DNA from: an uncultured Thermodesulfobacteriota bacterium
Lineage (GTDB): Bacteria; Desulfobacterota; DSWW01; CAZFWM01
Direction: 5' to 3'
NCBI GenBank assembly: GCA_964522545.1
Contig: CAZFWM010000015.1
Location: forward strand, 1-42,147
Length of the DNA stretch: 42,147 nucleotides
Shown: positions 10,631 through 42,147 of the stretch, in pieces
How positions within the stretch are numbered: position 1 is the stretch's first letter
Layout: each line of letters starts with the position of its first letter
Notes under the pieces: generated by a model
Databases searched by the model: none
What the model was told of the DNA's origin: nothing
The model's input: only the letters and a program-made list of their open reading frames with translations
Program-made: the position numbers and the translations under genes

Positions 10631-10675
10631 CTCAAAGATAGAGTACTTTTTGACGATTGAAAGATTCTGCGATTT

Positions 10676-12563: not shown

Positions 12564-12616
12564 GATTGCTCTATTGCTATTTAATAAGCCTTGTGGTATT
12601 AGAGTACTCAAATAGC

Positions 12617-12637: not shown

Positions 12638-12685
12638 CAAGTGGGTAACTATCCCCGCTAGACAGCAAAAGGGAGGGAGGCAACC

Positions 12686-13906: not shown

Positions 13907-13959
13907 GGTCGGGAAGACGGCCCCTTCACTCTCTGGATAAAGCGGTATGAGGAAGATAG

Positions 13960-14553: not shown

Positions 14554-14584
14554 GAACGAAATGGGGAAGCTCAAGTTCGCCGTC

Positions 14585-17227: not shown

Positions 17228-17269
17228 GGATCTTTGTACTCCAAGGGTCCGGGAAAGGTGACGAACCCC

Positions 17270-17977: not shown

Positions 17978-18325
17978 GCTTTTTCTTTCAATGCCACAGA
18001 GTGCGATCCGGGCAAGGCTTGTTTTCGCTGGAAAATATTTGACGGGGTTGATCATATTGTCACCTATGACGCCGCAGTCTGTAAAAAAAGAAATTAAAGG
18101 ATTGCAGATCAAATAAGTATTATGATACCCTAATGCAAGAAATAAAAAAATGTCAAGTGATGTCGGTCCACCAATTCACAGACTATGATGCGTCGCACAG
18201 GACACCCTCGGCCCTCGGTCGTGTCCGGTCATGCGAGCCCGGGGCTTGCAAAACATATTACTTTCCTACAAAATTGTAAAAAACGATTTGCCGAAGCATC
18301 CTATCGGAATATGAAAGGCACTTGA

Positions 18326-19867: not shown

Positions 19868-19912
19868 TACAATTTTGTATAAACGACGCGTAGTCCTACA
19901 AAAATGTATGAC
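19868..19912. promoter_or_regulatory. Candidate enhancer (UAS) palindromes ATACAAttTTGTAT and TACAaaaaTGTA, ~90-130 bp upstream of the sigma-54 promoter
   Basis: TACA-N4-TGTA dyads at 19868..19881 and 19896..19907. A third TACAaaatTGTA lies upstream of the activator gene itself (18266..18277). Confidence 0.35.
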
Positions 19913-20000
19913 AAATCACGGCTCTAGGATTTGCCCCTTTCGCCTCTAATCCCGCACAAAGCCTACGTTCTTCACCCTCCCGACCCTCTCCCGAAAAGGC

Positions 20001-20016
20001 TGGCATGGTCATTGCT
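20001..20016 (+). promoter_or_regulatory. Sigma-54 (-24/-12) promoter TGGCAT-N5-TTGCT driving amtB-glnK-glnA
   Basis: Canonical GG and GC elements with exact spacing (GG 20002-3, GC 20014-5), ~88 nt upstream of the amtB start. Confidence 0.75.
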
Positions 20017-20103
20017 AGCTGGGCTTTGACTTATACACCCGTTCAAGCGATCACGAAGGCTATGAAGAACGCGATTCCGACAAAGGGATGAGAGGGAAAT
20101 AGA

Positions 20104-21492
20104 ATGGATCTACTCCAGCGAGAGAAAAAGAGGGGATGCCTCGGGCAGAGGGAATGCCTCGGGCCGGCGGATAGAATTGCCTTTTCTGCATTGGCTCTCT
20201 TCCTGCTCCTTCCCGGATCGGCACTGGCCGATGAACCGGGAGGGGCCGTCGTCTCTCCGGTCGCCCTGAACACGGTGTGGGTCCTCATTACCGCCTTTCT
20301 GGTCTTTCTCATGCAGGCGGGCTTCGGGATGGTGGAGGCGGGCTTTATCCGGGCCAAGAACACTTGCAACATCCTGATGAAGAACTTCCTCGATTTCTGC
20401 ATGGCCTCGCTGGGCTTTTTTATCTTCGGTTATGCCATCATGTTCGGCGACGGGAATGCATTGTTCGGCACTACGGGGTGGTTCCTCGAGGGCGCCGTCT
20501 CAGGAGCGGATATTCCCCTGCATGCCTTCTGGCTGTTCCAGGCGGTCTTCTGCGGCGCCGCAGCCACGATCGTGGCCGGAGGGATGGCCGAGCGCATGAA
20601 GTTCCAGGCCTACCTCATGTATTCTTTTCTCATATCCGCCTTTATCTACCCTATTGTGGGACATTGGATCTGGGGCGGGGGCTGGCTGGCCGAGATGGGT
20701 TTTGCCGACTTCGCCGGGTCTACCGTGGTCCATGCCACGGGCGGCTGGGCGGCATTTATCGGGACCGTGATACTGCGGCCCCGGATCGGAAAGTACCGTT
20801 CGGACGGTTCCATAAGGGCCATTACCGGCCACAATATTCCCCTGGCCTCTCTCGGTGTTTTTCTGCTCTGGTTCGGCTGGTTCGGCTTCAATCCGGGCTC
20901 CACGCTGGGCGTCACCGACGGCGAAACCATCGCCCGGGTCGCCATCAACACGAACCTGGCCGCGGCGGCGGCGGCCATCAGCGCCATGATCGTGGTCTGG
21001 ATCAAGTTTTCCAAGCCCGACCTCTCGATGACCATGAACGGCGCCCTGGCCGGCCTGGTGGCGATAACGGCCCCCTGTGCCTTTGTCTCCCCCATGGCGT
21101 CGATCTTCATCGGAATGGTGGCGGGCTTTCTGGTCGTCTTCGGGGTCCTTGCTCTGGACCGGCTCCATGTGGACGATCCCGTGGGGGCCGTGGCCGTACA
21201 CGGGATCAACGGCATCTGGGGCACCGTCGCATTGGGAATATTCGGGCGGCAGTCTCTGGGGGTGGCCCGGGAGGGATTGCTCCACGGAGGTGGCTTCGCT
21301 CAGCTGGGCGTGCAGGTCCTGGGCACATTTGCGTGTAGCCTTTTCGTCATCGCCTCCATGGCCATGGTATTCAAATTCATCGATTCCATTGTGGGGCTCC
21401 GGGTCTCTCCGACCGAGGAGCTCAAAGGTCTCGACATTGGAGAGCACGGCATGGAGTCTTACAGCGGTTTTCAGATCTTCACGACGGAGTGA
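20104..21492 (+). CDS. amtB: Ammonium transporter (Amt/MEP/Rh family)
   Basis: 462 aa. N-terminal signal peptide and ~11 TM helices. Family signatures include [14 protein letters not shown] and [16 protein letters not shown]. Confidence 0.9.
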
Positions 21493-21497
21493 TCGAG

Positions 21498-21839
21498 ATG
21501 AAGTTGATCGTCGCCATGATTCAGCCCCACATGTTGCCTGCCGTAAAAAAGGCCCTTTTCGACGCCCAGGTGTTCAAGATGACGGTGGCCAATTCCCTCG
21601 GGTGCGGAGAACAATCCGGGTACACCGAGACATACAGAGGGGCGGTCGAAGAGGTGGACCTGTTGAAAAAGGTTCGGATCGAGATCGCCGTGAACGAAGA
21701 TTTTGTGGAGCCGACAATCGAGGCCATCACCGAAGGGGCCCGGACCGGTGAGATCGGGGACGGCAAGATCTTCATCCTGGATCTACATGAATGCGTTCGG
21801 ATTCGCACGGGCGAGCGCGGCAGCAAGGCCATCGGATGA
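21498..21839 (+). CDS. glnK: Nitrogen regulatory protein P-II
   Basis: [10 protein letters not shown]…T-loop…[12 protein letters not shown] at 21498 has GGAG 9 nt upstream. Lies 6 nt after the amtB stop (amtB-linked PII). Confidence 0.85.
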
Positions 21840-21846
21840 ACAGCCA

Positions 21847-23262
21847 ATGAACCTCAAGGAGCTGAGACGGATTTCCAAGGACCAGAGTCTGGAGTTCATC
21901 GATCTCAAGTTCACGGACATTCCGGGCACCTGGCAGCACTTCACGCTTCCCATCAGCGCTCTCGGCGATGATCTCTTCATCGAGGGGATCGGGTTCGACG
22001 GGTCCAGTATTCGAGGCTTTCAGCCTATCCACGAGAGCGACATGGTGATCAAGCCGGACCCGAAGACCGCCTTCATAGATCCGTTTTTCGAGCACCCCAC
22101 GCTGAGCATGGTCTGCAACGTCAAGGACCCTGTGACCATGAAGCTCTACTCCCGGGACCCCCGCCACGTGGCCCAGAAGGCCGAGCGGTATCTATCCGCA
22201 AACGGACTGGCCCAGCAGGCCTTTTTCGGCCCGGAGCCCGAGTTCTACATCTTCAACGATATCCGCTTCGACCAGACTCACAACAGCGGCTTCTACCGGA
22301 TCGATTCCCAGGAGGGGTTCTGGAACTCGGGGGCGGACGAGAGGCCGAATCTCGGATACAAGCCGCGCTATAAAGAAGGCTATTTCCCCGTCCCCCCCAC
22401 GGACAGTCTCCACAACCTGAGGGCCAAGATGGTAAAGGTCATGACCCGGGTCGGCATCGAGGTGGAATTCCATCACCACGAGGTCGCCACGGCCGGCCAG
22501 TCCGAGATCGACGTCAGGTTCAACACCCTGGTGCGGATCGCCGATGATCTCATGAAATACAAATACGTGGTCAAGAATGTTGCACTTGCGGACGGAAAGA
22601 CCGTCACTTTCATGCCCAAGCCGATCTTCATGGACAACGGGTCCGGGATGCACGTCCATCAGAGCCTCTGGAAGAATGGAAAAAATCTATTCTACGACCC
22701 CGAAGGATACGGCGGTCTCAGCCGGATCGGCCGGCATTACATTGGAGGCCTTCTCCATCATGCCGCCTCCCTTCTGGCCTTTTCGGCGCCCACGACGAAC
22801 TCCTACCGGCGACTGGTTCCGGGCTACGAGGCCCCGATCAACCTCATCTACTCCCAGAGGAACCGGAGCGCCTGCGTGCGGATTCCCCTCTATTCTCAAA
22901 GCGAGAAGTCAAAGCGGATCGAGTTCCGGTGCCCCGACCCATCCTGCAATCCCTACCTGGCCCTTGCCTCCATGTTCATGGCGGGCCTGGACGGGATCGA
23001 GAATGAGATCGAGCCGCCCGACCCGATCGACGAGGATCTCTACGAATTAGAGCCGGAGAGGGCGAGGGACATCAAGTCCACGCCGGGCACCCTCTCCGAT
23101 GTCCTGGACTCTCTGGAGAGGGATCACGCCTATCTCCTAAAAGGGGGGGTGTTTACGGAAGATCTCATCGAAGTGTGGATCGATTTCAAGAGAAAGAAAG
23201 AGATCGACCCCATACGGCTGCGCCCCCATCCGCATGAATTCGCCCTCTATTATGACGTATAG
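21847..23262 (+). CDS. glnA: Glutamine synthetase type I
   Basis: Start at ATG 21847 ([33 protein letters not shown]…). The ORF-track start at 21703 overlaps glnK and is rejected. ~471 aa with the GSI beta-grasp and catalytic domains. Confidence 0.85.
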
Positions 23263-24665: not shown

Positions 24666-26027
24666 ATGAAAGCAAGAAGAACATTTCTTACAGTTAGTTT
24701 GCTTTTGGGTTGCTTTCATCTGTTTTCGCTCACATCGGTTCTGGCCCAGGAGATGGGCTATCCCAATATTGCCCCCAAAAAGCTGGAGATCAAAAGGGGC
24801 TATACCCCTGATGCCTTGAAGTGTATTGAGTGCCATGCCAAAGAGACATCTGGTATCGTAGCGGCTTGGAAGACCAGCCGGATGGCTCATGCAGGAGTTT
24901 CCTGTTATGACTGTCATGTAGTACATAAAGGCTCTTCCATGGCCAGCCAGTGTGATGGGATAAAGGATACCCGGCCGAAAATCCATACCTCTCCGATGGT
25001 GAGCCCTAAGACGTGCGAGAGATGCCACCCTTCCGAGGTAGAGCAGTTTTCCAAGAGCTCTCATGCCCAGCTTGCCGGCGCCCCGGTAATAGAAAAGTCT
25101 GAATTTCATCATCTTATGTATGAGCTGGAAGGCGGCATATTTATGGGTATGCCGGAAGGTGACAAGCGTACCCTCGCTTCCAGGGAATCCGGGTGCCAGA
25201 TGTGCCACGGTACGGAGGTTGAGCTCAAGCCCGATAATAAACCGACGGATGATAGCTGGCCGAGTGGTATCGGCGCTCGCTATCCTGATGGCGGTATAGG
25301 CAATTGTACCTGCTGTCATAATCGGCATGAATTCAAAATTTCCGGAGCCAGGAAACCCGAGGCCTGTGCCAAATGTCATATGGGACCGGACCATCCCGAC
25401 ATTGAAATTTATTACGGAAGTAGTCACGGCCAGCTTTATCTGGCTTCGGGTGATGAGTGGAGGTGGGATAGTGCCCCTGACACCTGGGAGCCTGGTGATT
25501 ATATCGCACCCACTTGTGCCACATGTCACATGAGTGGGATTGGTGATCTGGGCACTACTCACAATGTCAACGAGCGGCTGATGTGGGACCTGGCGCATGT
25601 CAAGAGTGTGGTTCGAAGCGGCGAGCGCGGTAAGGGCGAAAAAGGACGCGAGCTCATGATGAAGGTCTGTAGTAACTGTCACAGCAAGGTTCATATTGAT
25701 AGCCACTTTGCTGGGCTGGCCAGAGCAATTGGACTCTACAATTTTTATATAGATGGAGCTCAGGAGATGATGGACGCTCTCAATGGAAAAGGGCTTCTGA
25801 AGAGCGACAAATGGAACGATCCATTTCAGAAACTCTTTTACTATCTCTGGCACCATTCAGGACGAAGGACCCGTCATGGTGCTGCCATGGCCGGCCCGGA
25901 TTATGCCCATTGGCATGGCTTCTTCCAGATGTTCCAGATGTACAAGGATATGCAGGAAATTTACGACTGGCGAAAACAGAACAATAAGATCGAGGCCCTT
26001 AGCCCGGTTATGCTGACGCTTCCATAG
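24666..26027 (+). CDS. hao: Octaheme cytochrome c of the hydroxylamine oxidoreductase (HAO) family
   Basis: 453 aa with a signal peptide and eight CxxCH motifs (CIECH, CYDCH, CERCH, CQMCH, CTCCH, CAKCH, CATCH, CSNCH). Size and heme spacing fit HAO/epsilon-Hao-type octahemes. Confidence 0.7.
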
Positions 26028-26162
26028 ATATGGATATATAAGTGCGACGATTGTGCACAGGGAGAACAAAGTCTTGAGATACTCAAACAAAAGATCGGGT
26101 TTTCTGGCCTTTGGTGTTGTGGGTCTTGTTATTGTGTCTTATGCAAATTTACAGCCTGGTCC

Positions 26163-26570
26163 TTGGCGTATACCTCTTCTGAAGAATTCTGCACCAACTG
26201 CCATGAGATGATGTACCCTTATAGAGGCTGGAAGGCATCTTCTCACTATGACAACCGGTCCGGAGTGATGGCAAGTTGCGCGGATTGTCATCTGCCTCCG
26301 GATATAGTCTCTATGATCAAGGTAAAGATCATAACAGGCACAAGAGATACATTTGTACATTATCTTGGAAATCCAGAAGGGCTTGATTTCGATGAATTGG
26401 CTAAAAAGGCAAGAAAAAATATTGCAGACGTTTCATGTGTTAAATGTCACAAGAATCTCTTTCCGACCTGTATTACGAAAGGTGGACTCATAGCGCACAG
26501 GGCATGGCAACGGGGTGTAGAGAAAAAATGCGTAGACTGCCATGTAAATCTTGTACATACACAATCGTAG
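26163..26570 (+). CDS. NapC/NirT/NrfH-family tetraheme cytochrome c (heme domain). The predicted N-terminal membrane anchor lies in the -1 frame (about 26053..26160)
   Basis: Four CxxCH motifs (CTNCHE, CADCHL, CVKCHK, CVDCHV). TSSEEFCTNCHEMMYPYRGWKASSHY matches the NapC signature. The TM helix RSGFLAFGVVGLVIVSYANL is encoded in the other frame upstream, giving an apparent -1 frameshift around 26145..26160. Confidence 0.7.
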   Translation: MAYTSSEEFCTNCHEMMYPYRGWKASSHYDNRSGVMASCADCHLPPDIVSMIKVKIITGTRDTFVHYLGNPEGLDFDELAKKARKNIADVSCVKCHKNLFPTCITKGGLIAHRAWQRGVEKKCVDCHVNLVHTQS

Positions 26571-30181: not shown

Positions 30182-30865
30182 TCAACAGGTAAGCTCATCC
30201 CCTCTTACGCCGCGGTAAGGGTCACGACTCAGCTCCTTGTTAAAAAGGGAGCTGTCCAAGCCGAATCTCTCACAATCGAGTTTCAAGACCGACTCGAGGA
30301 GTTTTGCTAGTCTCTGATAAAAGCCATCGCCCTCAAGCGCTTGAACCTGGCTACAAAAGAAAAATCCCCATGTTGCAAGGTGTTCCTTGAAAAACTTGAT
30401 TCTTGCATCTCGAACGATCCTTGTATGTTCTTGCTGTCTCTCCAGCCTAGAATACGCCTCTTTCCATTCGAGGATCGCCATGAATTCAAGTTCGACGGAT
30501 ATGTGGTCCAGGGCCTCCTTATTGTTTCTGTCTTCGTCGAGATGAAAGCCGAATGCGCTGTAGAAACCAGCTATGTCAGCGAGTTCAAAAGGTTTTCTCG
30601 ATACCTTTTCTTTCATGTATTCTGTCTCGTATGGGGATATCTCTCTGCCGATGTCAAAAATAGAGAGATATTCGGACTTCACATCGTCAATTCTATGCGC
30701 CTTCTCGAGAAAGTATTCCTTGAAACGCTTCATCTCCGACAACATTTTGTCATCGAAGATAATTTCATCCATCATGAGGAGTTTTTCGAGAATCGCCCAG
30801 TTCTTTTCATCAGGATATGAGAGTCCGAGAGAGAGGATCTTGTAACTGTACAGGAAGTCGATCAT
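30182..30865 (-). CDS. TorD/NarJ-like redox-enzyme maturation chaperone
   Basis: ATG at 30865..30863 overlaps the upstream gene's TAA by 1 nt (TAATG), suggesting translational coupling. ~227 aa all-helical protein with TorD/NarJ/EbdD-like spacing. The ORF-track start at 30943 carries a Gly-rich extension. Confidence 0.5.
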   Translation of the reverse strand: MIDFLYSYKILSLGLSYPDEKNWAILEKLLMMDEIIFDDKMLSEMKRFKEYFLEKAHRIDDVKSEYLSIFDIGREISPYETEYMKEKVSRKPFELADIAGFYSAFGFHLDEDRNNKEALDHISVELEFMAILEWKEAYSRLERQQEHTRIVRDARIKFFKEHLATWGFFFCSQVQALEGDGFYQRLAKLLESVLKLDCERFGLDSSLFNKELSRDPYRGVRGDELTC

Positions 30866-31749
30866 TACTCTTCTACCTCCACCTCCGCCCATGCGGGGCT
30901 CACGGCCTTTCTTCCCCCCGTCTCCATCCGGCTCCCCTCCCAAACAGCGAACGCAATGGGCATTTTTTTCCCCACCTTGAACTGACAGCTCTCCTGATCA
31001 TTCACGCTGAGCGCCCTCCTGAAGATGACCGTCCATTCACCATTCTCCCAGCCGGCTTCACCGGAAGCATTCTCGACCTTCTTTGATTCAATCGTTCCGG
31101 GGCCGGCCGAGGATAATTCCACAACGATGCCTTTCCTGGAAAAGGAGACGGGATTTTTTGCCGCCCTTCCTGGAATGAACAGGTCCTTCTCGGCCTGCGT
31201 TTTTTCAGTCCCCTCCCCCTCAACGACGTAATCAAAAGTATAGAGATCCGATGTCATATTCGGATAGGCGGTCTTGGTCGTCTGAAATCCACTTTCCTTA
31301 TCCCTGCTCCTCCAGGCCTTCCAGTACATTATATAAACGGCTTTGTCCGACTCCCCCATAAAGAATTCCGGAACGGCGTCTTTGCTTACCGGAAACTGAA
31401 TTGAAGCGCCGTCGGAAAAGTTCATGAGCTTGATCTCGTCATCCTTTGTTGCGTCCCTCCATATCAATCTGAACGCGATATACTCACCGTCGTGGATGGA
31501 CTGGACAAGGACCTCTGTAACACCGACCTCGGCGGGCTTGGGTTCCTCGAGAAACTGTTCCTGCAGAATCTGTTTGTAAGGCTTTATCGCGTTCCACACA
31601 TCATCATGGAGGTCCACCGTACGGACATCGAGATCGGCCCGGTATGAAGTGAACTCGACAAACTGTTTTCTCTCCGCCCTGGCCATAGTCGCAACCATCG
31701 CCATACAAAAGGAGAGATATAGTATTTTTTTTAACATAGGCGGCCTCAC
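30865..31749 (-). CDS. Periplasmic gamma subunit of a type II DMSO-reductase-family enzyme (EbdC/NxrC-like putative heme b subunit)
   Basis: 294 aa. Signal peptide MKKILYLSFCMAMVATMARA. Soluble beta-rich protein immediately downstream of the NarH/NxrB-like gene, where NarI would otherwise be. The family assignment is by context and size, not by a recognised motif. Confidence 0.45.
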   Translation of the reverse strand: MRPPMLKKILYLSFCMAMVATMARAERKQFVEFTSYRADLDVRTVDLHDDVWNAIKPYKQILQEQFLEEPKPAEVGVTEVLVQSIHDGEYIAFRLIWRDATKDDEIKLMNFSDGASIQFPVSKDAVPEFFMGESDKAVYIMYWKAWRSRDKESGFQTTKTAYPNMTSDLYTFDYVVEGEGTEKTQAEKDLFIPGRAAKNPVSFSRKGIVVELSSAGPGTIESKKVENASGEAGWENGEWTVIFRRALSVNDQESCQFKVGKKMPIAFAVWEGSRMETGGRKAVSPAWAEVEVEE

Positions 31750-31756
31750 ACTCTGC

Positions 31757-32893
31757 TTACGGTGTATTGTGTCTGTAAGCTACAAGCCTTTCGTCGAAGA
31801 ATTCCCTCTCGATGATCGGCTCTGTTATCGGGACCTTGATGATTTCCCGCCCTTTATCGTCGTAGCCGTATGCGTTTTCCCGATCCACTCGAAACGAATG
31901 AAGGATCCTCTCCATGCTGCCGATGAGTACAAGAAGTCCCTGGAGTATCTGATCGTCCTTGATGTTCTTGTACGTCTCGATGGCGGCCGCTGTCCCGGGT
32001 CCGAACATCTGCTCGAGATAGGGAAGGGGCACGTGAATCGGCGGGATAAAATAAATGTTCGGTTCCAGTCCGAATTGGGGATAAAGCGGGAGAGCGAGCT
32101 TTCTCTCGTGGATCAAGTAGTCCAAGGGATTGTCTTTTCTTGCCCTGTCAGGTGTGCTCACGAAGCCATGGATCCTGATCTTGCCGATGCAGTTCGTCAC
32201 ACACTGAGTCATCTCGCCTTGCTCGATCTTCGGATAGCAGCCGACGCACTTCTCACTGATCCTCGTTTCGACATTGAACATGGACTTCTTATAAGGGCAT
32301 GAACGGACGCACTCCCTGTATCCGCGGCATCGTGCCTGGTCAATGAGAACGACGCCGTCCTCGGGCCTTTTGTAGATGGCCTTTCGCGGGCAGGCCGCAA
32401 GGCAGGCGGGATATGTACAGTGCGCGCATGTCTTCTGGAGGTAAAACATCCATATTCTGTGGGGTAGTGTCGCTATCCAATCGCCCCTGTTGATCAAGCC
32501 GGACACTTCATCCTCCCCGATGTTCGGATAGGCCCAGTCTTCTTCCTCAGCTACGTGCTGGAGTATTTTTTCGTCCTTTTGCGCGGCTTCAAACAGGGTC
32601 TTGCCAACATATTTCTCTCCCTTCCACTCCTGCAGGCCCAGTTTCGATAGAATTCCGAGATCCCAGCCGACGGGATAGCCGCCGTAGGGCTTTGTCTCGA
32701 CATTATTCCAAAACATATATTCCTGGCCCTTGCCCGATGTCCATGTTGTTTTGCATGCCAGTGAGCAGGTCTGGCAGGCTATGCATTTGTTCAGATCAAA
32801 GACGATCGCCCACTGTTTCTTCGGTCGGGTCTGGGGGTACAGGTACGCCACCCGCCTGCCCAATTGCCAGTTATATACTTTTCGCAGCAGCAT
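31757..32893 (-). CDS. Fe-S beta subunit of a Nar/Nxr-type molybdoenzyme (NarH/NxrB-like)
   Basis: 378 aa. N-terminus WAIVFDLNKCIACQTCSLACKTTWTSGKGQEYMFWNNVETKPYGG matches NarH (LDKCIGCHTCSVTCKNVWT…WFNNVETKPG). Further clusters CAHCTYPACLAACP, CRGYRECVRSCPY and CVGCYPK…CVTNC. Confidence 0.8.
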   Translation of the reverse strand: MLLRKVYNWQLGRRVAYLYPQTRPKKQWAIVFDLNKCIACQTCSLACKTTWTSGKGQEYMFWNNVETKPYGGYPVGWDLGILSKLGLQEWKGEKYVGKTLFEAAQKDEKILQHVAEEEDWAYPNIGEDEVSGLINRGDWIATLPHRIWMFYLQKTCAHCTYPACLAACPRKAIYKRPEDGVVLIDQARCRGYRECVRSCPYKKSMFNVETRISEKCVGCYPKIEQGEMTQCVTNCIGKIRIHGFVSTPDRARKDNPLDYLIHERKLALPLYPQFGLEPNIYFIPPIHVPLPYLEQMFGPGTAAAIETYKNIKDDQILQGLLVLIGSMERILHSFRVDRENAYGYDDKGREIIKVPITEPIIEREFFDERLVAYRHNTP

Positions 32894-32909
32894 TTTCCTG
32901 TTCTCTCCC

Positions 32910-35900
32910 TTATTTCTTGACCTTGATGAAGTCGCCTTTCATGAAGGCTTTCATCTTCTCGTCTTCATAGGTCGGCCTGATTTGTTTGGTGACGGGCGTC
33001 CACAGGCCCTTGCCGCCGATCCCACCATCTTCGGCCCTCGCGATTTTCACAAATCCCTCTCTGGGAGCGCCGTTGGCACAATGGATATCCGGCGCAAACC
33101 CTTTTCCGATCGTCTGCCCGAACATATTTTTTCGAATCAGGGAATCCGTCATGAGGGTGGGTCGCAACCATGCCCGCGTGGTGCTTTGATGGCTGCCGTA
33201 TCTGAACATCGACTGGTAGTTCGTCTCCGGATTCTTGGCCAGGCCGTCCTCCCTCGCCTCATGACCTTTCACACTGCCGATCGTGGCAGGGTAACTGTTG
33301 TGCCACATCCGGGTCACACCTCTGGGTGTCCCCGGATAGTACCGAGCCCGGCAAAGGAGCCTTGCAACCTTGTAGTTGCGCTCATCTTCTTTCCACCCTT
33401 TGTAAGGGCGATCGTCGGGGTCGGCATCTATATGGATGTAATCGCCGTCTTCGATCCCCATCTCTCTGGCGTCCAGGGGATTGATGTCCAGGTACATCTC
33501 CATGACAAAGGGCAATCGCCGGTCTCTCCGATAGACATCTCCGAAGGGGCCGAACCATATGGCGACCGCATCCGTATCCGCGGGCGTGGTATGCACTGCG
33601 TGCCGGTATTTCGGCGTGTGCATGATAAACCGGAATCCATCCTCCTTCATCAGGGGGTGTTTCGTCCTGTGCAGTTCATCCACGGACATCTGTATATTCC
33701 TGACCTGCCTTGTCTCTGTGCTCATGTCCTCTGATGAGAAGTTCCAGTCTTCGGGCTTCTTTGGTCGGATCGCCGGATGGCGTTCTCCCACGATTACATT
33801 CGGCTCATAAAACGTCGAATCGATCGCTTCACGATAGACAATCATATTCTCGCCGTGCTCCAGCCATTCCCTCTCGTCCCGGTAGAACTCGAGTCTTCCC
33901 GATTTCGTGTAGTAAGGTTTTCCTTCCTGGGCCTGCTCGAAACTTGAAATGCGCGGATAGGTTCTGTAATTCGCCAGTGCGGGCTTTCCGTTACTGGCAT
34001 CCCTTTCGAGATCCTCGCTCTGATAACCGACCAGGTTGGCTGAAGTGTCAATGATCCGCTGGGTATATACATCGACTCGATTCTCGTGCACGAACTTCCA
34101 GTAGTCATCGTATCGCTTGTCTTTCGTGATCTTTCCAAGGGCATGGCCAATCCCCGCGAGGATCTCGATGTCCGGTTTCGTGTCGAATATTCGCGGCAGG
34201 GGTGTTCTCGGATAGACCTGGACGAAGGGATTGGTGCAGGAGGCCGTAAAATCAAGGTGCTTGAACTCCGCCGGAGCGTCGGCCCCCCATACGATATCGG
34301 AGTACTCGCATGAAGCCGTCCACCAGTAATCCGCCACCGCTATGAACTCGAACTTCGGCAGCGTATTAAAGACGACATCGTAATGGCCCTTCGCGTTTCC
34401 GATCAAGGAGTTGGAGTTTGTGATGAGCATCGCTTTGGAAGGAGTGTTGATGTGCGTCTTGCCCGTGAAAAGATGCCCTCCGACTCTCAGCGGCCTGTCG
34501 CCATAATTGAAATAATGGGCGGATTCATATTTCAAATATTTCTTCTTCGTGATCGCCCCGGTTGGATTCATCTGAATATGAAAAGGGTCCTCGGCCACAT
34601 AATTTCCCATCCCTCCTATGATGGCCGCCCTGTAATTGCCGGCATAGCTCCCTACATTTCCCCCGTAGTATCCAAGGTTCCGTGTCAATGTAGCCAAGAA
34701 TAGGGACGCCCTGTCCTTCAGGTCATTATTGAAATACTGATTGGTGCCCATGCCCATGGCGAAAAGAGTTTGCTCCTTGTTGGCGGCGATCTGTCTCGCC
34801 AGCGATACAATGGCTTCCTTCTGAATCCAGGTAATCTTCGATGCCTGCTCCGGAGTGAAGTTTTTGTCGATATATTCCTTCATGAGATCGAAGACGGGCC
34901 GGACCCGAACCTTTTCCCCTGCTACGGTCGTCACTTCGAATTGCCCTTCCAGGGCGACGTCCTTCGAGAAATCGTCTCCAAAATCATCCCGGCCGACGGC
35001 CATCGGGGCATTCGCCCTGGAATCCCACACGACGTAATCGATCCATTCGTTTGCAATATCCTCCGGAACGAGTTGTTCCGTGTGCTCTTTTGTGGGCAGA
35101 ATTTTTGTTTTTTTCCCGACGATCTTCGTATTGCGATTCGGGACTTTCTTTTTGTATCCCGGCAAGATCTCTTCCGCGCTGAGAAACTTGAGGGTATCCG
35201 TCCTCACAAGAAACGGCAGGTCCGTGTTGCGCTTTGCATGTTCGGCATCGTACAAATTTTCCTTGATGATGACTTGCGACAGACTGAGTGCGAGGGCCGG
35301 ATCGGTTGCCGGCCTGATGACGAGGACCTCGTCCGAATGACAGGCCGTCGACGGATATTCCACGGTGATCGCCACGACCTTGGTCCCCTTGAGCCTCGCT
35401 TCCGTCAACCAGTGTGAATCGGGCATCTTGGTTGAAAGCCAGTTCATCCCCCACAGAAGGATGAGCTTGGCCCTCTCCACGGCGAAAAGCTCGAACTCGT
35501 TGGTCTGCATCCCCGTGACCATGGGGTGTCCCGGGGGAAGGTCCGTATGCCATGTGTAGCTATCCCATCCCCGTCCTCCCAACGCCTTCTCAGGGGGGAC
35601 CCCCCGTATGCTTTGATCCAGCAGAGCGAGCATGTTTGCAAACCTGTAATATCCGAATATCCGTACGGCACCCAAGAAAGCCATTCCGCCCCTGCATTTC
35701 AGGGTCTGGGTGCCCGCTTTGTGGATTGTCTCGACCATCGCAGGGTCGTACCCTTGCCTGTGCAGATACTCGCTCCCTTTGTCTTCCGAATAGGTGACGG
35801 CGATATTGTGAAGAGCCTTTGCCGCCAACGCATAGGCTTCATCCCAGGGAAGCTTCAGCCATTTGTCCTCCCCGCGTCGAAAATATTTCTCCGGGGGCCT

Positions 35901-36464
35901 TGCCGTATTTCGGTCTCTCGGAAAACCATCCTCTACCCACTCTTTGAATCCCTTCCGGACTATGGCCCCTTTTACGCGACGGTCTCCGTAAATCCTCCTG
36001 ACGAGGCCGATGCCCTTCTGGCAGATACGCGGATCCCAGCGGGCGGATGCCCTGTTGCCATATAGGTCGGTTGCTTCGCCGTATCGGTAAGAAGGGCTGA
36101 TCCGAGTTATGACACCGTTTTTGACATGTGCTTTTAGAAGGCAGTTGTGTGTGTCATTGGGCGCACAGAGAAAATGAAACTCCCCGTCGGTTTTATAAAT
36201 GTTCCTGTAAACCTTTTCCCAATCTCTGTCCGGATAGGTCTCGAGGGGATTTTCTGTTTTCGGCTCAAGAAAGGCGAACAGGTCGGGCTCGATCGTCTTC
36301 ATGAGTATTCCCGCACTCGTGCCGGCCGCAAGTGTCAGAAAGGCCCTCCTTGACAGCTGACCCGAGCTCTTATTCGTCCCACCTTCTTTATTGTCCTTTT
36401 CCACAGACAGCTCCTTGTCCTCTAATGAATCGGCCATTGGCTCTTTGACCAGTAGAACTCCCAA
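32910..36464 (-). CDS. Tat-exported molybdopterin catalytic subunit of the type II DMSO reductase family (NarG/NxrA-like periplasmic nitrate reductase or nitrite oxidoreductase alpha subunit)
   Basis: 1184 aa. Twin-arginine signal SRRAFLTLAAGTSAGIL. N-terminal FS0 motif HFLCAPNDTHNC…C (H-x3-C-x3-C-xn-C) characteristic of Nar/Nxr/Ebd-type enzymes. Start may be the internal ATG (MADSLEDK, ~36437). The 5' end overlaps the cyt b gene stop. Confidence 0.75.
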   Translation of the reverse strand: MGVLLVKEPMADSLEDKELSVEKDNKEGGTNKSSGQLSRRAFLTLAAGTSAGILMKTIEPDLFAFLEPKTENPLETYPDRDWEKVYRNIYKTDGEFHFLCAPNDTHNCLLKAHVKNGVITRISPSYRYGEATDLYGNRASARWDPRICQKGIGLVRRIYGDRRVKGAIVRKGFKEWVEDGFPRDRNTARPPEKYFRRGEDKWLKLPWDEAYALAAKALHNIAVTYSEDKGSEYLHRQGYDPAMVETIHKAGTQTLKCRGGMAFLGAVRIFGYYRFANMLALLDQSIRGVPPEKALGGRGWDSYTWHTDLPPGHPMVTGMQTNEFELFAVERAKLILLWGMNWLSTKMPDSHWLTEARLKGTKVVAITVEYPSTACHSDEVLVIRPATDPALALSLSQVIIKENLYDAEHAKRNTDLPFLVRTDTLKFLSAEEILPGYKKKVPNRNTKIVGKKTKILPTKEHTEQLVPEDIANEWIDYVVWDSRANAPMAVGRDDFGDDFSKDVALEGQFEVTTVAGEKVRVRPVFDLMKEYIDKNFTPEQASKITWIQKEAIVSLARQIAANKEQTLFAMGMGTNQYFNNDLKDRASLFLATLTRNLGYYGGNVGSYAGNYRAAIIGGMGNYVAEDPFHIQMNPTGAITKKKYLKYESAHYFNYGDRPLRVGGHLFTGKTHINTPSKAMLITNSNSLIGNAKGHYDVVFNTLPKFEFIAVADYWWTASCEYSDIVWGADAPAEFKHLDFTASCTNPFVQVYPRTPLPRIFDTKPDIEILAGIGHALGKITKDKRYDDYWKFVHENRVDVYTQRIIDTSANLVGYQSEDLERDASNGKPALANYRTYPRISSFEQAQEGKPYYTKSGRLEFYRDEREWLEHGENMIVYREAIDSTFYEPNVIVGERHPAIRPKKPEDWNFSSEDMSTETRQVRNIQMSVDELHRTKHPLMKEDGFRFIMHTPKYRHAVHTTPADTDAVAIWFGPFGDVYRRDRRLPFVMEMYLDINPLDAREMGIEDGDYIHIDADPDDRPYKGWKEDERNYKVARLLCRARYYPGTPRGVTRMWHNSYPATIGSVKGHEAREDGLAKNPETNYQSMFRYGSHQSTTRAWLRPTLMTDSLIRKNMFGQTIGKGFAPDIHCANGAPREGFVKIARAEDGGIGGKGLWTPVTKQIRPTYEDEKMKAFMKGDFIKVKK

Positions 36465-37981
36465 TCCGGCCCTCTCAGCTCTGTGCCGAAGTAAGTGAAT
36501 ATCACATAGCTGAGTAAAAACATGGTAAATACGGCAATGGCCCCCATCCTGGTTGAATCCGTCTTCTTAATGGTCCAGACCGACCAAGCCATCATAAATC
36601 CGACCCAGATCGTTCCCGGATTTACCAGGATAATCAATAATTGAGGGACTTCCGGCCACCAGGTTCTGAGCCAGCCGTAGTTGATGACTATTGCGAGCAG
36701 GCCGATGACGACTGCGGTCCCGACGACAAATGACTTCAGCGCGACGAACCAACCCTGCCGGTTCGAAAACCAGATGCCGACATAGTCTCGCTCTCTGTCG
36801 AGATAGGGAATCAAGGCGAGTCCCAGAAGCGCCAATCCGGGAAGGGCTATGCCGCCCATGAATGCGGAGTAAGACACCAGTTCCTGTAGCCCGAGAAAAT
36901 ACCAAGGGGCCTTTGCTGGATTCTCTGGGATGAGAGGATTGGCGAGCTCCCGAAGTGGTGCGTTGACGTGAAATGCATACACGACCACAGCCGCCAGACA
37001 GAATATGAAGACCGCCGCCTCGGCACGGAGAAGATGGGGCCAGCTCATTACCGTGTTCTCTACATCCTGATCGACTGCAGGGGTTTTGCCATGGGGAAGC
37101 GCCATAAGGCCATAGGTCTTGTGTGTCGAAAATTGCCCTTCCTTCTTTTCAGGGAGCCTTCGATCACCAATGGCCTCGTCCTCCGACTCGAAACCGTCCG
37201 GCCTCGTGAGCCCCCCATCTTTTCTCACTCGCCAGAAATGCACCCCTAAAAGGATGGATATGATGAGCGGAAGAAGCACAATGTGAAGCAAATAGACTCT
37301 GACAAGAGATTCCTGGCCCGGAATCGAGCCTCCGAGAAAAATTTCTTTTGAAGCGCCCCCGACGTCAAAAAAGCCGGTCACCCCAAAAATGTCTGTGATC
37401 TCCTTCGGGGACTGAACGATATTCGCAACAATGACGAACGCCCAGTATGCGAGCTGATCCCATGTCAGCAGATAGCCTGAGAGGTTCAATGCAAAGGTAA
37501 GTACAAGGAGCGCAATCCCGATGAGCCAGTTGAACTCCCTCCCCTTCTTGTATGAGCTGGTGTAAAAGACCCTTGCCATATGGAGTATGACAAAGATGAT
37601 CATCGCCTCCCCGGCCCATTTGTGAATATTTCGCATGAGTCTTCCGGAATAAACAACGTAGCTGATGTCCTTTACGCTGCTGTATGCGTTTTCCACCGAC
37701 GGGTGATAATAGATCATGAGAAGGGCGCCCGAGATGAAAGTGATGATAAGCAGATAGAATGCGATAAGGCCCAGCCCGAGAGTATAGGCCGGCCTTAGTG
37801 TATTCAGATGGGTCCTGACACCCTGGATGTGGAGGAAAAAGTTGTTGACCATAACGGCGGCTCTCGACCTGTCGGATGACGGTCTGCCGCCTCTTAAAAA
37901 AGAGCGTACGAATGATTGCTTAATCGTTTTTATATTTTTTTTGAATGCGTCGATTCCTGACCGGTTCGCCTCAGGCATCAT
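36422..37981 (-). CDS. Cytochrome b of a Rieske/cyt b (bc1/b6f-type) complex, long fused form
   Basis: 519 aa. Helix-B and helix-D bis-His ligands (RNIHKWAGEAMIIFVILHMARVF; YLLHIVLLPLIISILLGVHFWRVR). Additional C-terminal TM helices (subunit-IV-like). Confidence 0.8.
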   Translation of the reverse strand: MMPEANRSGIDAFKKNIKTIKQSFVRSFLRGGRPSSDRSRAAVMVNNFFLHIQGVRTHLNTLRPAYTLGLGLIAFYLLIITFISGALLMIYYHPSVENAYSSVKDISYVVYSGRLMRNIHKWAGEAMIIFVILHMARVFYTSSYKKGREFNWLIGIALLVLTFALNLSGYLLTWDQLAYWAFVIVANIVQSPKEITDIFGVTGFFDVGGASKEIFLGGSIPGQESLVRVYLLHIVLLPLIISILLGVHFWRVRKDGGLTRPDGFESEDEAIGDRRLPEKKEGQFSTHKTYGLMALPHGKTPAVDQDVENTVMSWPHLLRAEAAVFIFCLAAVVVYAFHVNAPLRELANPLIPENPAKAPWYFLGLQELVSYSAFMGGIALPGLALLGLALIPYLDRERDYVGIWFSNRQGWFVALKSFVVGTAVVIGLLAIVINYGWLRTWWPEVPQLLIILVNPGTIWVGFMMAWSVWTIKKTDSTRMGAIAVFTMFLLSYVIFTYFGTELRGPDWEFYWSKSQWPIH

Positions 37982-37987
37982 CTCTCC

Positions 37988-38464
37988 TTATACTGAGACC
38001 TTTAACAGGGTTCCTTGCTTTACTTCCTTGGCCGCATCGACCACCAGGCTGCCATCCACACTCTGACTTATTTCAAGCCATGGCAAGGCTCTCGGTGCAG
38101 GTCCGGCAATAACCTTTCCATCTTGAGTGTATTTCGAGCCGTGACAGGGACACTTGAAACCGGTTTCAGCGATGGCTACTATACAGCCGAGATGTGTGCA
38201 AACACCGGATATGGCGTGGAGCCCGTCACTGTCTGAAAAGATGAAAACCTTTCTGTCGGCGAGTTTTTTCACTGTGCCCACAGGAAAATTCTCGGGTCTG
38301 CCGATCTTGAATTTTCTTGATTTCTCATAAAAAACGTTGGGCTTTGCCATTCTGAGCATCCCGGCTAGAACAGACAGAGATGACAAAATAACGATTCCTA
38401 AAGACGCCAGCCCCAGAACACTTCGTCGTGTCATTCCCGCTTCTTGTTGGGGTTCATCGTTCAT
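37988..38464 (-). CDS. Rieske [2Fe-2S] iron-sulfur protein
   Basis: 158 aa. Tat-like anchor [15 protein letters not shown]. Cluster boxes CTHLGC and CPCHGS. Confidence 0.85.
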
Positions 38465-38592: not shown

Positions 38593-39318
38593 TCATCCGG
38601 TTTCCACCCATGCAAGCTCAACGGCCTGTGGTCCCCCCGTGGTGAACAGGCCGGTGTAAAACCCGATCAGGCCCATTGCCGGGAAGGGGAAGCTTACGGG
38701 CAGATGCAGGGGCGGTTCGATGGCCGGCAGTTGAACGGGCCAGAGCGGGATGATCCGAACCGTCGGGGACGTGAGGATCAGATAGTTCGACCAGGTGGCC
38801 GGCTCCGGCAGGCCCATCGTGAAGTCGAGATGCAGGGATCCGGCCGCATAGGATGCGTCCAGGGAACAGGTGAACACCGCGGTGACGCAGTCCGGATCGT
38901 CCCCGTCGTAGAGGCAGTCCCCGTCGTTGTCGAGAAGATCTTCGCATTCGTCCAGGCAGGCGCTGAGATCGGTCTCCTCGGTGGGAGGGGTCGAGCCGTG
39001 GCATCCGACGCAGGACGTCGGTCCCCCGGCGCACTGGTGATGGCGGGAGAGGCCGCGGTCCTTGTGGCAGTTGTCACAGACTGTCCTCTGCAGGGCCGGG
39101 TTGTACTGGTGGCAGTAGTTGCAGTTGCCCTGGATACAGGTCAGGGGCTCATGGGTCTGGTGCCATGCCTGTCCGGTCGGATGCCCCAGGGCGAACTCAT
39201 GGCAGCCTGAGCAGGAACTGAAGCTCGAATAGGCCATCGCCGAGCCCACAATGGAAAATACGAAGATGAGAGCAAGCAGGGCAATGAACGATTTTCGCGG
39301 TATCATGAATCTCCTCAT
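38593..39318 (-). CDS. Secreted tetraheme cytochrome c with a Cys/Asp-rich motif and the conserved ~90-aa C-terminal domain shared with ORF 2103..2990
   Basis: Signal peptide. Four CxxCH motifs (CSGCH, CNYCH, CDNCH, CVGCH). CLDECEDLLDNDGDCLYDGDDPDC. C-terminus ATWSNYLILTSPTVRIIPLW…GLIGFYTGLFTTGG…LAWVETG. Likely first gene of the Rieske/cyt b operon. The start could be the internal ATG at 39306. Confidence 0.65.
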   Translation of the reverse strand: MRRFMIPRKSFIALLALIFVFSIVGSAMAYSSFSSCSGCHEFALGHPTGQAWHQTHEPLTCIQGNCNYCHQYNPALQRTVCDNCHKDRGLSRHHQCAGGPTSCVGCHGSTPPTEETDLSACLDECEDLLDNDGDCLYDGDDPDCVTAVFTCSLDASYAAGSLHLDFTMGLPEPATWSNYLILTSPTVRIIPLWPVQLPAIEPPLHLPVSFPFPAMGLIGFYTGLFTTGGPQAVELAWVETG

Positions 39319-39449: not shown

Positions 39450-39502
39450 TTGACGGGAAATCCTCCTCGGGCTATTATTATGTTATTCAATTGATCAATT
39501 GA
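39450..39502 (+). promoter_or_regulatory. Sigma-70-like promoter (TTGACG-N17-TATTAT) followed by a perfect 16-bp palindrome TCAATTGATCAATTGA overlapping the RBS (candidate ArsR-type autoregulatory operator)
   Basis: TTGACG at 39450..39455. TATTAT at 39473..39478. The palindrome at 39487..39502 is its own reverse complement. A second perfect 7-1-7 palindrome ATGCTTGtCAAGCAT lies at 39418..39432. Confidence 0.45.
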
Positions 39503-39513
39503 GGAATAGATGA

Positions 39514-40185
39514 ATGGCCAGCAAAAACCGGATATTCAAAGACGCCATCTACGAGCAGTTCGCCCGGATCGGCAAGGCGGTCTCCAGCCCCAAACGCCTG
39601 GAGCTCCTGGATCTTCTCTGCCAGGGGGAGAGGACGGTCGAAGTCCTCTCTTCTGAAGCGGGCATGCCCGTGGCCAACGCCTCCCAGCACCTCCAGGTTC
39701 TGCGTGCCGCGCGGCTCGTGGAAGCCCGGAAGGAAGGTGTTTTCGTCTCCTACCGCATGGCCGACCAGACGGTCTGCGAGTTCTTCCGCGCCATGCGTGT
39801 GCTCGCCGAGGGTCGATTGGCCGAGGTGGAGCAGATCACCCGCCGATTCCTGGAGGGACGGGAGGGGATGGAGCCGGTCGACCGCGATGTCCTGCTGAAA
39901 CGCGTCAGGAAAGGGACCGTGACCGTGCTCGACGTGCGGCCGGTCGAGGAGTACCGGTCCGGCCACATTGAGGGGGCCATATCCATCCCCCTGAAAGAGC
40001 TCGAGCGCCGCCTCGCCGAGCTGCCACGGGACCAGGAGATCGTGGCCTACTGCCGGGGCCCCCACTGCGTTCTCGCGGTGGAGGCGGTCGAGCTCCTTCA
40101 TGCGAAGGGGTTCCAGGCGATCCGCCTCGAGGATGGCGTGCAGGATTGGCGCGCCCATGGATTCCGGGTGGAAGAGGGGGAGTAG
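39514..40185 (+). CDS. ArsR/SmtB-family transcriptional regulator fused to a rhodanese domain with a CxGxxC active-site motif
   Basis: 223 aa. HTH …LELLDLLCQGERTVEVLSSEAGMPVANASQHLQVLRAARLV. Rhodanese domain with YCRGPHC loop. Confidence 0.75.
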   Translation: MASKNRIFKDAIYEQFARIGKAVSSPKRLELLDLLCQGERTVEVLSSEAGMPVANASQHLQVLRAARLVEARKEGVFVSYRMADQTVCEFFRAMRVLAEGRLAEVEQITRRFLEGREGMEPVDRDVLLKRVRKGTVTVLDVRPVEEYRSGHIEGAISIPLKELERRLAELPRDQEIVAYCRGPHCVLAVEAVELLHAKGFQAIRLEDGVQDWRAHGFRVEEGE

Positions 40186-40227
40186 AAACCGACGCCGGGG
40201 AAAAGCCGGCGATAAGGGAGGTCTTCA

Positions 40228-41970
40228 ATGAATTTTCGGAAAAGGATGACCCTGGCCTTTGCGGCCCTTGTCGTGACGATCGGCCCCCTCTGGCTCGCGA
40301 ACCGTCCTGTGCCCCAGAGAGAAATCACATGGGAGGACGTGGTCACAGAAGCCCGGGATGGGGGATACAGGCTCATTCCCATGGAAGAGCTATGGAAGCA
40401 TTATCAAAAAAACCCGGAAAACCTTCTGCTGGTGGACACACGGCAGGACTGGGAGTTCCGGACGGGGCATATCGAAAGTGCCCTGCACTTTCCGATGGAA
40501 CCGACGCGGTGGGCTCGATGGAGCAGGCAGGGAGCCATGAAGGCAACCCTGGGCCCCGACAAGAATCGATTCATTATCTTCTATTGAGCGGGCCTGGCAT
40601 GAGTCCGCAGTGACTCGGCGGCCCGGGTGGCCGTCACGCTCGGTTATGAAAACGTTTTCCGCTATGCCCGGGGATATCCGGAATGGCAGGCCCACGGCCT
40701 TCCGACAACAAGCGCCCCGGCGGGCGCCTCCGAAACAGCGGCGGAGCCCCCGGCGCCCGGCCCCCTGCACGGATGGGCCATGGTCTTGACTCTTCTGGGG
40801 ATATTCGCCGGGGGCATGGCCCTCAACCTGACACCCTGCGTCTATCCTCTGATTCCCATCACGGTCTCTTACTTCGGCGGCCGGAGCGGCCAGAGCCGGG
40901 GAAGGCTTTTTCTCCATGGCCTGAGCTACATCGGCGGCCTGGCCGTCACCAATTCCGCCCTGGGAGTCGCCGCGGCCCTGACCGGAGGCCTCATGGGGGC
41001 CATGCTCCAGAATCCCGTCGTGCTGCTCGCGGTCGCGGCTGTTCTGGTCCTTTTTGCCTCCAGCCTTTTCGGATTCTGGGAGCTGCGCCTGCCCGACGGC
41101 CTGACCCGCGCGGCCTCGAAATCCTTTGCCGGCTATTTCGGCAGCCTCTTCATGGGGCTGACCCTGGGAGTCGTGGCCGCACCCTGCATCGGACCTTTCG
41201 TTCTGGGGCTGCTCACCTGGGTGGCCGGCGCGGGAAGCCCATGGCTCGGTTTTCTGGTCTTCTTCACCCTGAGCCTGGGCCTGGGCCTGCCGCTTTTCGT
41301 CCTGGCCATCTTCTCGGGAAAGCTGGAGAAACTCCCCCGCTCTGGGGAGTGGATGATATGGGTGCGAAAACTCATGGGCTGGGTCCTGGTCGGCATGGCC
41401 GCCTATTTCGTGCGCCCTCTTTTACCCGGCGGCGCCAGGGCTATTCTACTCGCCGCGGTTATCCTCGCCGCCGGACTGCACATGGGATTGATCGACAGGA
41501 CGCGGGCCGGATTTCGCGCTTTTCAGTGGATAAAAGAAGGGACATGGCTGGCGGGCCTGGTCGCGGCCGCCCTCCTGATAGGATCATGGGCCATGCACGG
41601 CCCCGGGGTGGCCTGGCAGCCTTACTCGGATCAGATCGTGTTGGAGGCCGCAAAATCGGGGAAACCGGTGATCATCGATTTTTCCGCCGCCTGGTGCTCG
41701 CCCTGCCGCAAGCTGGACGAGGTGACCTTCCGCGATCCTGAAATCGTCAGACAGGCGGCGCGCGATTTCATCACGGTGAAAGTCGATCTCACATGCAAGG
41801 GCGGTCAGGACCATGAACGTCTATTGCGAATATATGAGGTTAAAGGTGTTCCGACCGTCCTGTTTTTGGACAGTGCGGGAAGGGAGCGTCAGGACCTTCG
41901 CCTGCTGGATTTTCTGCCGCCCGATCGGTTTTTAATAAGTATGTCCAAGGTAAGGACAACTCGCGACTAA
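40228..41970 (+). CDS. Rhodanese - CcdA/DsbD transmembrane - thioredoxin fusion protein, read through two in-frame TGA codons (40585..40587 and 40600..40602). Candidate selenoprotein with a U-x4-U motif
   Basis: Single frame from ATG 40228 (RBS AAGGGAGG) to the stop at 41970, interrupted only by two TGAs. N-terminal anchor. The rhodanese domain runs across both TGAs (…LLLVDTRQDWEFRTGHIESALHFP…FIIFY-TGA-AGLA-TGA-VRSDSAARVAVTLGYENVFRYARGYPEWQAHGLP). The CcdA/DsbD TM domain has TPCVYPLIP and APCIGPFVLG. The C-terminal thioredoxin fold has WCSPC. In the paralogous rhodanese upstream (YCRGPHCV…), both TGAs align to Cys. Confidence 0.55.
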
Positions 41971-41992: not shown

Positions 41993-42147
41993 ATGATTCG
42001 TGGATTAATAATCGTGCTCGTTTCGATCCTGTTCACCTGCACAATGGCAGGCCCGGCCCGGGCAGGGTTCGAGTTCCAGATCACGGAGCATGCCAAGGGC
42101 GAGATCGGCTTCTGGACGCAGGCCTGGTATCAATATGTGGAGGACGG
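41993..42147 (+). CDS. Secreted protein, 5' partial (continues beyond window end)
   Basis: ATG at 41993 preceded by AAGGAGTG. Signal peptide MIRGLIIVLVSILFTCTMAGPARA. Open to the window edge. Confidence 0.4.
   Translation, partial: MIRGLIIVLVSILFTCTMAGPARAGFEFQITEHAKGEIGFWTQAWYQYVED

Follow-up and report, generated by a model that had tools for sequence, protein, structure and literature searches.

A double-selenocysteine rhodanese/DsbD gene of the TsoB family on a contig from an uncultured Thermodesulfobacteriota bacterium

A 2026 review lists TsoB, a rhodanese/DsbD fusion-like selenoprotein with a UxxxxU motif and two selenocysteines (Sec), after Haft & Tolstoy 2025, and gives Tso as standing for "three selenoprotein operon" (PMC13188914). 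Here we analysed a gene with two in-frame TGA codons that lies at positions 40228-41970 of a 42,147-nucleotide stretch of DNA from an uncultured Thermodesulfobacteriota bacterium (contig CAZFWM010000015.1, assembly GCA_964522545.1; the whole stretch is referred to below as the window). This double-Sec rhodanese/DsbD gene is a member of the described and curated TsoB family (2025), and its kind was already known. The product scored 990.8 bits against the NCBIfam model NF045694 seleno_TsoB (cut-off 805), its residues 6-575 aligning to model positions 2-571 of 572. The Pfam domains followed each other in the TsoB order of rhodanese, DsbD membrane core and thioredoxin domain, and both in-frame TGAs fell within the active-site loop of the rhodanese with the UxxxxU spacing of the family.

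An initial annotation of the window had regarded a U-x4-U pair in such a fusion as unusual. This view could not be maintained, as the pair is the published hallmark of TsoB and a defining feature of NF045694. As a discovery the locus adds little, and the annotation pipeline of NCBI would name the protein TsoB. At the same time it represents a clean positive control, in which a double selenoprotein together with its selenocysteine insertion sequence (SECIS) was deduced from the raw sequence alone.

Two in-frame TGA codons in the tsoB gene

The gene comprises the following features.

40228-41970 (+): tsoB coding sequence, 580 amino acids (aa) including two Sec, stop codon TAA at 41968-41970 (translation, Pfam and the NF045694 score above)
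40214-40221 (+): Shine-Dalgarno-like AAGGGAGG, 6 nt 5' of the tsoB ATG at 40228, read from the sequence
40585-40587 (+): UGA1, codon 120 (Sec120), at the catalytic-Cys position of rhodaneses
40600-40602 (+): UGA2, codon 125 (Sec125), the second Sec of the U-AGLA-U loop; Cys in homologues and TGA in the orthologues

Translation of 40228-41970 gave a frame of 581 codons in which UGA1 and UGA2 are the only internal stops. When Cys was placed at both TGA positions, Pfam recognized one rhodanese domain (residues 53-155) that spans the two codons. In BLASTP the product matched the ArsR-rhodanese protein encoded upstream (39514-40185) with E = 6e-11, pairing IIFYCAGLACVRS with IVAYCRGPHCVLA, so that each TGA stands opposite one Cys of the CxxxxC of the upstream protein; the full-length Cys homologues agreed with this placement. 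Elsewhere in the window TGA is an ordinary stop, ending 12 of the 33 open reading frames (ORFs) treated as genes, including amtB (20104-21492). The initial annotation had claimed all of this, namely the single frame broken only by the two TGAs, the rhodanese domain running across both, their position on the two active-site Cys and the normal use of TGA in amtB, and each claim was borne out.

Orthologues were collected in a scan of one genome per species, which returned 80 loci. The rhodanese-DsbD set comprised 60 gene copies in 59 of these loci, mostly from Desulfobacterota and in addition from Nitrospirota and Thermodesulfovibrionales; the other loci carried DsbD relatives with a different N-terminal domain. 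The protein studied here is 54-70% identical to the 60 orthologues. We observed TGA at both columns within an intact frame in 60/60 of them, the typical motif being FY-TGA-[A/D]GL[A/T]-TGA-VRSDSAAR, whereas the rare full-length homologues P0004, P0005, P0072 and P0082 have Cys at both. The comparison of orthologues that the initial annotation had proposed thus gave a uniform answer, and its opinion that random pseudogenisation was hardly able to produce the pair gained support from the recurrence of TGA/TGA at the same columns. The amino acids encoded by the four codons between the TGAs are kept as A-G-L-[A/T] while the third positions are free (1.4-1.9 bits), which implies that translation continues past UGA1. 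It is almost certain that the two TGAs specify the two selenocysteines of a redox-relay protein in the membrane, and we consider it very probable that tsoB specifies one inner-membrane protein of 580 residues in which both in-frame UGAs are read as selenocysteine.

In public databases the family has a different appearance. When the full-length protein was used as a query, 115 of the top 120 protein matches were about 445 aa long and started right after UGA2, and with the N-terminal segment as a query 118 of the top 120 matches were pieces of 110-125 aa of this segment ending at UGA1; further Cys forms did not come out of this second search. These matches of about 445 and about 119 aa indicate that gene callers split the family nearly everywhere. 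Hundreds of clusters of the TsoB family are deposited as two separate proteins, the longer piece being labelled "thiol:disulfide interchange protein DsbD" or "cytochrome c biogenesis protein CcdA" and the shorter "3-mercaptopyruvate sulfurtransferase SseA" or "rhodanese-like". Family-wide analyses built on such split gene calls will be wrong.

Two further loci were observed among the relatives. In one full-length TsoB homologue (P0006, L086:6001-7764) the Sec columns are occupied by GGA (Gly) and by CGA (Arg), each one first-base change away from TGA; both downstream hairpins are intact, and the gene adjoins a TsoX-family gene and an ArsR gene. It looks as if this lineage had turned both Sec codons to sense and lost the rhodanese active site but kept the DsbD part. 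At L056:3356-10138 the whole tsoA-tsoB-tsoC unit is present in two tandem copies with near-identical sequence around the TGAs.

Hairpins downstream of the two UGA codons

To the 3' side of the TGAs lie two adjacent hairpins.

40617-40635 (+): hairpin 2, GGCGGCC-CGGGU-GGCCGUC, 7 bp, SECIS-like element, -11.5 kcal/mol
40601-40616 (+): hairpin 1, GAGUC-CGCAGU-GACUC, 5 bp, starting 13 nt past UGA1, its stem taking in the GA of UGA2

Both were predicted by RNAalifold and supported by pair counting in a gap-free alignment of 90 nt around the TGAs, which contained 60 sequences (the window and a single copy per locus for the 59 loci). Hairpin 2 begins 14 nt past UGA2, exactly as the initial annotation had described it when proposing a SECIS-like element, and it behaves as a bacterial SECIS. 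A distance of 21 nt separates its loop (40624-40628) from UGA2, and one of 36 nt separates it from UGA1. Across the 60 sequences 99.4% of the cells of this hairpin were paired, and two of its pairs, formed solely by synonymous third positions, covary (GC in 46, AU in 10 and CG in 2 sequences for one; CG in 56, UA in 3 and UG in 1 for the other). In the loop G47 and U50 were invariant, and loop position 3 was only G or U. The bacterial SECIS model asks for a stem of 4-16 bp that is closed by an apical loop of 3-9 nt, for G within the first two positions of this loop and, as a rule, G/U after it, for a distance of 16-37 nt from the UGA to the apical loop and a folding energy of -7.5 kcal/mol or lower (PMC13188914); in stem, loop, spacing and energy hairpin 2 agrees with every one of these for both UGAs. 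The SECIS of tsoA, in the same genomes, is built alike (13-nt spacer, AGGUG loop).

As the second candidate element the initial annotation had named a 4-bp stem with a 9-nt loop at 40605-40621, which turned out not to be the conserved structure; the conserved one is hairpin 1. In this hairpin 95% of the cells were paired, RNAalifold predicted the three inner pairs, and pair 27-34 changes from C-G to G-C in three Nitrospirota sequences. Its synonymous sites are frozen, Asp being GAC in 57/57 and Val GUC in 52/58 cases, whereas another Asp 50 nt downstream is encoded with 23 C and 22 T. Synonymous entropy fell to 0-1.0 bits inside the hairpin stems only. The loop of hairpin 1 is 18 nt from UGA1. 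An alternative helix seen in the single-sequence fold, between alignment columns 10-15 and 25-30 (the segment between the UGAs and the start of hairpin 1), was rejected, since 81.1% of its cells were paired in comparison to 80.4% after shuffling and no meaningful covariation was detected. Rfam gave no family at gathering score in the whole window, and a permissive scan of 40500-40750 gave chance-level matches with no bacterial SECIS model among them.

Five homologues with Cys at the Sec columns served as a control that is informative for the loop and for hairpin 1 only. The hairpin 2 loop CG[G/U]NU of the Sec forms becomes CGC[A/G]U in the Cys forms, position 3 being C in the three distant ones, and in the same three hairpin 1 drops to 2-3 of its 5 pairs. 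Covariation of the third-position pairs is specific to the Sec forms, as are hairpin 1 and the presence of G/U at position 3 of the hairpin 2 loop. The stem of hairpin 2 persists in Cys forms even at about 55% identity, with other bases at the synonymous pairs, where it could be a fossil SECIS, a by-product of the codons or a structure with another role.

With regard to decoding, SelB carrying Sec-tRNA would bind hairpin 2, and hairpin 1 would be either an additional SECIS for UGA1, weaker than hairpin 2, or a collapsible spacer. With hairpin 1 folded, hairpin 2 would be separated from UGA1 by about 13-14 single-stranded nt; once the ribosome has moved five codons on and unwound hairpin 1, hairpin 2 would be 14-15 nt from UGA2. 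It is possible, and we suggest this only tentatively, that one SelB-binding hairpin serves two UGAs 15 nt apart with hairpin 1 as the collapsible spacer. For the decoding of two UGAs at a distance of five codons, the locus offers a testable lead.

Several observations weigh against Sec insertion at both UGAs under the direction of these hairpins. Neither the window nor the 8.2 kb beyond it, covered by the identical contig L093, contains selA, selB, selD or tRNA-Sec, so that the ability of the organism to decode Sec is presumed. The partner genes of the family, tsoA and tsoC, gave neither an L*LAxC or NEPxGxx* motif nor a tblastn match in the window or the 8.2 kb downstream (L093), and experiments on a TsoB did not turn up in the searchable literature, which does not cover the founding paper. 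Hairpin 1 alone folds with -4.5 kcal/mol, short of the SECIS energy limit, and its loop CGCAGU lacks the G[G/U] motif and agrees with only a loose form of the loop rule. The five Cys-form homologues (L084, L085, L087, L088 and L089) keep 5-6 of the 6 hairpin 2 pairs, and 4/6 of these pairs are fixed by the codons for Ala-Ala-Arg-Val-Ala-Val. Moreover, the hairpins do not fold convincingly better than shuffled sequence (z -0.65 to -2.1). Because Cys forms keep the stem and codons force 4/6 of its pairs, the stem of hairpin 2 alone is no proof of SECIS function. The retention of the stem in Cys forms, its codon-fixed pairs and the modest z values are what favours the possibility that the hairpins are not Sec signals at all but a by-product of the amino acid sequence or, for example, a translational pause in membrane insertion, with the true SECIS elsewhere. 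However, the two third-position pairs are paired in 58/60 and 60/60 Sec forms with three pair types each, and the drop in synonymous entropy is confined to the stems. All 60 Sec forms have G/U at loop position 3, whereas the three distant Cys forms have C there and have also lost hairpin 1, and no support emerged for a different helix in this region. We consider it unlikely that the hairpins have nothing to do with Sec.

The lack of Sec machinery in the window and L093 would also agree with read-through of UGA without Sec, through a reassigned code or near-cognate insertion of Trp or Cys. This explanation appears very improbable, since TGA ends 12 of the 33 ORFs treated as genes in the window, the homologues have Cys, the usual counterpart of Sec, at the TGA columns, a hairpin of SECIS type follows whose distance and loop are as required, and the family is curated as a selenoprotein. 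Automatic public annotation presents the gene as it would look if it were dead or split, that is, as a 119-aa rhodanese remnant and an independent 447-aa DsbD-like gene starting from GTG 40627, and a GTG does exist at this position. Nevertheless, this division would cut a single rhodanese domain in two, no ribosome-binding site precedes the GTG, and in 60 species both TGAs persist in an intact frame whose codons between and behind the TGAs are under purifying selection. The fixation of two independent nonsense mutations at the same columns across phyla is not credible, and we see hardly any chance for a split gene. For a sequencing or assembly error that changed TGC or TGT to TGA nothing could be put forward beyond its being possible a priori. 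The initial annotation had asked that base-call errors be excluded with the raw reads. We found both TGAs in contigs from three separate JGI metagenomes, which over 2.6-11.9 kb show 0-1 mismatches to the window. Since three separate metagenome assemblies carry the same sequence, an assembly error is ruled out; both TGAs are also present in relatives of 88% identity (ENA and Logan assemblies), and the probability of an error is negligible. Decoding of both UGAs as selenocysteine is the reading that we follow below.

Protein architecture and the proposed redox relay

The domains and Cys residues of the TsoB protein were located as follows.

40384-40692 (+): rhodanese domain, residues 53-155, spanning both TGAs, predicted periplasmic (Pfam, hydropathy and charge, alignment to solved rhodaneses)
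40783-41421 (+): DsbD/CcdA membrane core, residues 186-398 (Pfam DsbD_TM, E = 2.4e-42; PDB match to CcdA, 5vkv)
40837-40839 and 41185-41187 (+): membrane-core Cys204 and Cys320, both invariant in an alignment (A2)
41611-41871 (+): thioredoxin-like domain with WCSPC, residues 462-548 (Pfam Thioredoxin_7)
41695-41697 and 41704-41706 (+): Cys490 and Cys493 of WCSPC

The match to the Pfam rhodanese family PF00581 reached 54.1 bits (cut-off 22.2). UGA1 was aligned to the catalytic Cys of the solved structures 6mxv and 3d1p, in comparison to which the loop is two residues longer and carries the second Sec. Hydropathy and charge show three K/R at the N-terminus ahead of a hydrophobic stretch (residues 7-25, signal anchor), so that the rhodanese domain is expected to be periplasmic.

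The initial annotation had seen a DsbD-type thiol relay in the remainder of the protein, and the Pfam, DsbD-model and PDB matches were in line with this. The best PDB matches of the thioredoxin-like domain were DsbD gamma domains (e.g., 4ip1, E = 1e-15). Residues 184-575 aligned to positions 167-572 of 574 in the NCBIfam DsbD model (NF001419), which is everything past the alpha domain; the score of the whole protein was 234 bits, below the cut-off of 330. As the DsbD model aligns only past alpha and the PDB matches are to the gamma domain and CcdA, the rhodanese appears to stand where DsbD has its alpha domain, which is the terminal electron acceptor. If the protein works in analogy to DsbD, the membrane Cys pair C204/C320 would be reduced by cytoplasmic thioredoxin and would then reduce the WCSPC of the periplasmic thioredoxin-like domain, and this domain would reduce a diselenide in the periplasmic rhodanese loop U120-AGLA-U125, the presumed working site. 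The likely order of the relay would accordingly be thioredoxin, C204/C320, WCSPC and U120-x4-U125. What the loop would act on is the weakest step of this scheme: an incoming chalcogen or metalloid species (e.g., selenite, tellurite or polysulfide) might be handled in the periplasm.

Gene neighbourhood and comparison with known systems

The surroundings of tsoB bear on the possible substrate.

39470-39519: imperfect palindrome with core TCAATTGATCAATTGA, 27-nt arms and 74% complementarity, overlapping the start codon of the ArsR-rhodanese gene
39514-40185 (+): ArsR/SmtB helix-turn-helix (HTH)-rhodanese fusion gene, 223 aa, with CRGPHC, 42 nt upstream of tsoB (Pfam HTH_5 and Rhodanese)
41993-42147 (+): first part of a porin gene continuing beyond the window end; 391 aa at full length in L093, which is identical to the window over 11.9 kb

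The ArsR-rhodanese protein reached 70 bits with NCBIfam HTH_metalloreg (cut-off 55); it is not TsoR (42.4 bits, TsoR cut-off 115). The gene is likely a regulator, and the palindrome is plausibly a candidate autoregulatory operator, as its position suggests. An ArsR-rhodanese gene upstream of tsoB was also observed at seven species loci (L001, L003, L009, L021, L028, L030 and L042) and in the relatives L081-83. The porin narrowly passed the ExtI porin model NF040900 (151.7 bits, cut-off 150) and matched Pfam Porin_O_P. As a partner of tsoB it was seen only in the window, in the contigs identical to it and in the 88%-identical L081-83. In L093 (11748-18673, the porin gene included) the porin gene is followed by a second ArsR gene, a gene for a Cys-rich secreted protein of 153 aa and genes for CzcB and CusA/CzcA, a heavy-metal efflux pair.

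The presence of the ArsR-rhodanese, the ExtI-like porin, the second ArsR and the CzcBA-type efflux pump in the neighbourhood suggests a periplasmic chalcogen or metalloid substrate. As a softer reading, TsoB may work in this lineage without TsoA and TsoC and form with the ExtI-like porin a periplasmic module for selenite, tellurite or similar compounds. The locus context of ArsR-rhodanese, ExtI-like porin and Czc-type efflux provides a testable lead toward periplasmic chalcogen or metalloid handling.

We also noted features of the window that are separate from tsoB. A complete cluster of the type II DMSO-reductase family with beta, haem-b gamma and chaperone genes occupies 30182-36464 (-); its 1184-aa alpha subunit matches the nitrite oxidoreductase NxrA of Kuenenia over the full length (7b04_B, 927 bits). 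Beside this NxrA-like cluster lie Rieske and cytochrome b genes (36422-38464) and a gene for a four-haem cytochrome c (38593-39318). The ORF at 24666-26570 (+) matches hydrazine dehydrogenase weakly (66 bits, cut-off 900), and the ORF adjoining it matches NrfH/NapC below threshold (75 bits, cut-off 134). Together with nirA-like, amtB, glnA and NifA-like genes at 9056-23262, the window is rich in nitrogen-cycle functions. An IS200/IS605-family transposase gene at 3635-4069 (+; 137.6 bits, cut-off 55) sits among ORFs with low GC at third codon positions (34-7067). These ORFs have weak matches to adhesive fibre proteins of the Bdellovibrio type, and the findings suggest an inserted or foreign segment. 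A search of the window for further selenoprotein genes, as same-frame ORF pairs split by one TGA, gave none that was convincing, the candidates being antisense to real genes or adjacent genes in the same frame (e.g., 10676/9056).

When compared with described systems, the protein shares with TsoB (NF045694) the full-length architecture and the two-Sec U-x4-U motif. The canonical operon of this family has tsoB flanked by tsoA (LULAxC) and tsoC (NEPxGxxU), whereas the locus studied here is without both. By tblastn over the 59 related species loci, tsoC was found just downstream in 47/59 and tsoA just upstream in 33/59, with similar results from a motif search; the tso-operon setting is a context feature that lies outside the definition of the NF045694 model.

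In Geobacter the extHIJKLMNOPQS cluster, which includes the rhodanese-like ExtH and the porin ExtI, is needed for selenite and tellurite reduction (PMC5877670). The likeness to the present locus is that a rhodanese-bearing protein is encoded beside an ExtI-type porin; no equivalents of ExtH, ExtJ, ExtK or ExtL were identified at the tsoB locus, and further components of the Ext system did not appear. The nearby Rieske and cytochrome b genes were rejected as parts of an Ext system, as the cytochrome b scored below the cut-offs of ExtP (210.6 vs 290) and ExtQ (48.8 vs 150) and the genes adjoin the NxrA-like cluster on the opposite strand, to which the cytochrome b more likely belongs.

E. coli-type DsbD resembles the protein in the membrane core with two conserved Cys and in the C-terminal thioredoxin-like CxxC domain. 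However, the N-terminus of DsbD is an immunoglobulin-like alpha domain with a Cys pair, instead of which TsoB has the two-Sec rhodanese domain. Single-domain rhodaneses and the Sec-rhodanese forms described earlier (forms 1-4 and the UxU of the Olavius symbiont; PMC13188914, PMC1976440) have the fold in common with TsoB, as well as Sec at the position of the catalytic Cys. In comparison to 6mxv and 3d1p, the loop of TsoB is two residues longer and a second Sec follows five residues on; unlike in single-domain rhodaneses, the domain is joined to an electron relay in the membrane.

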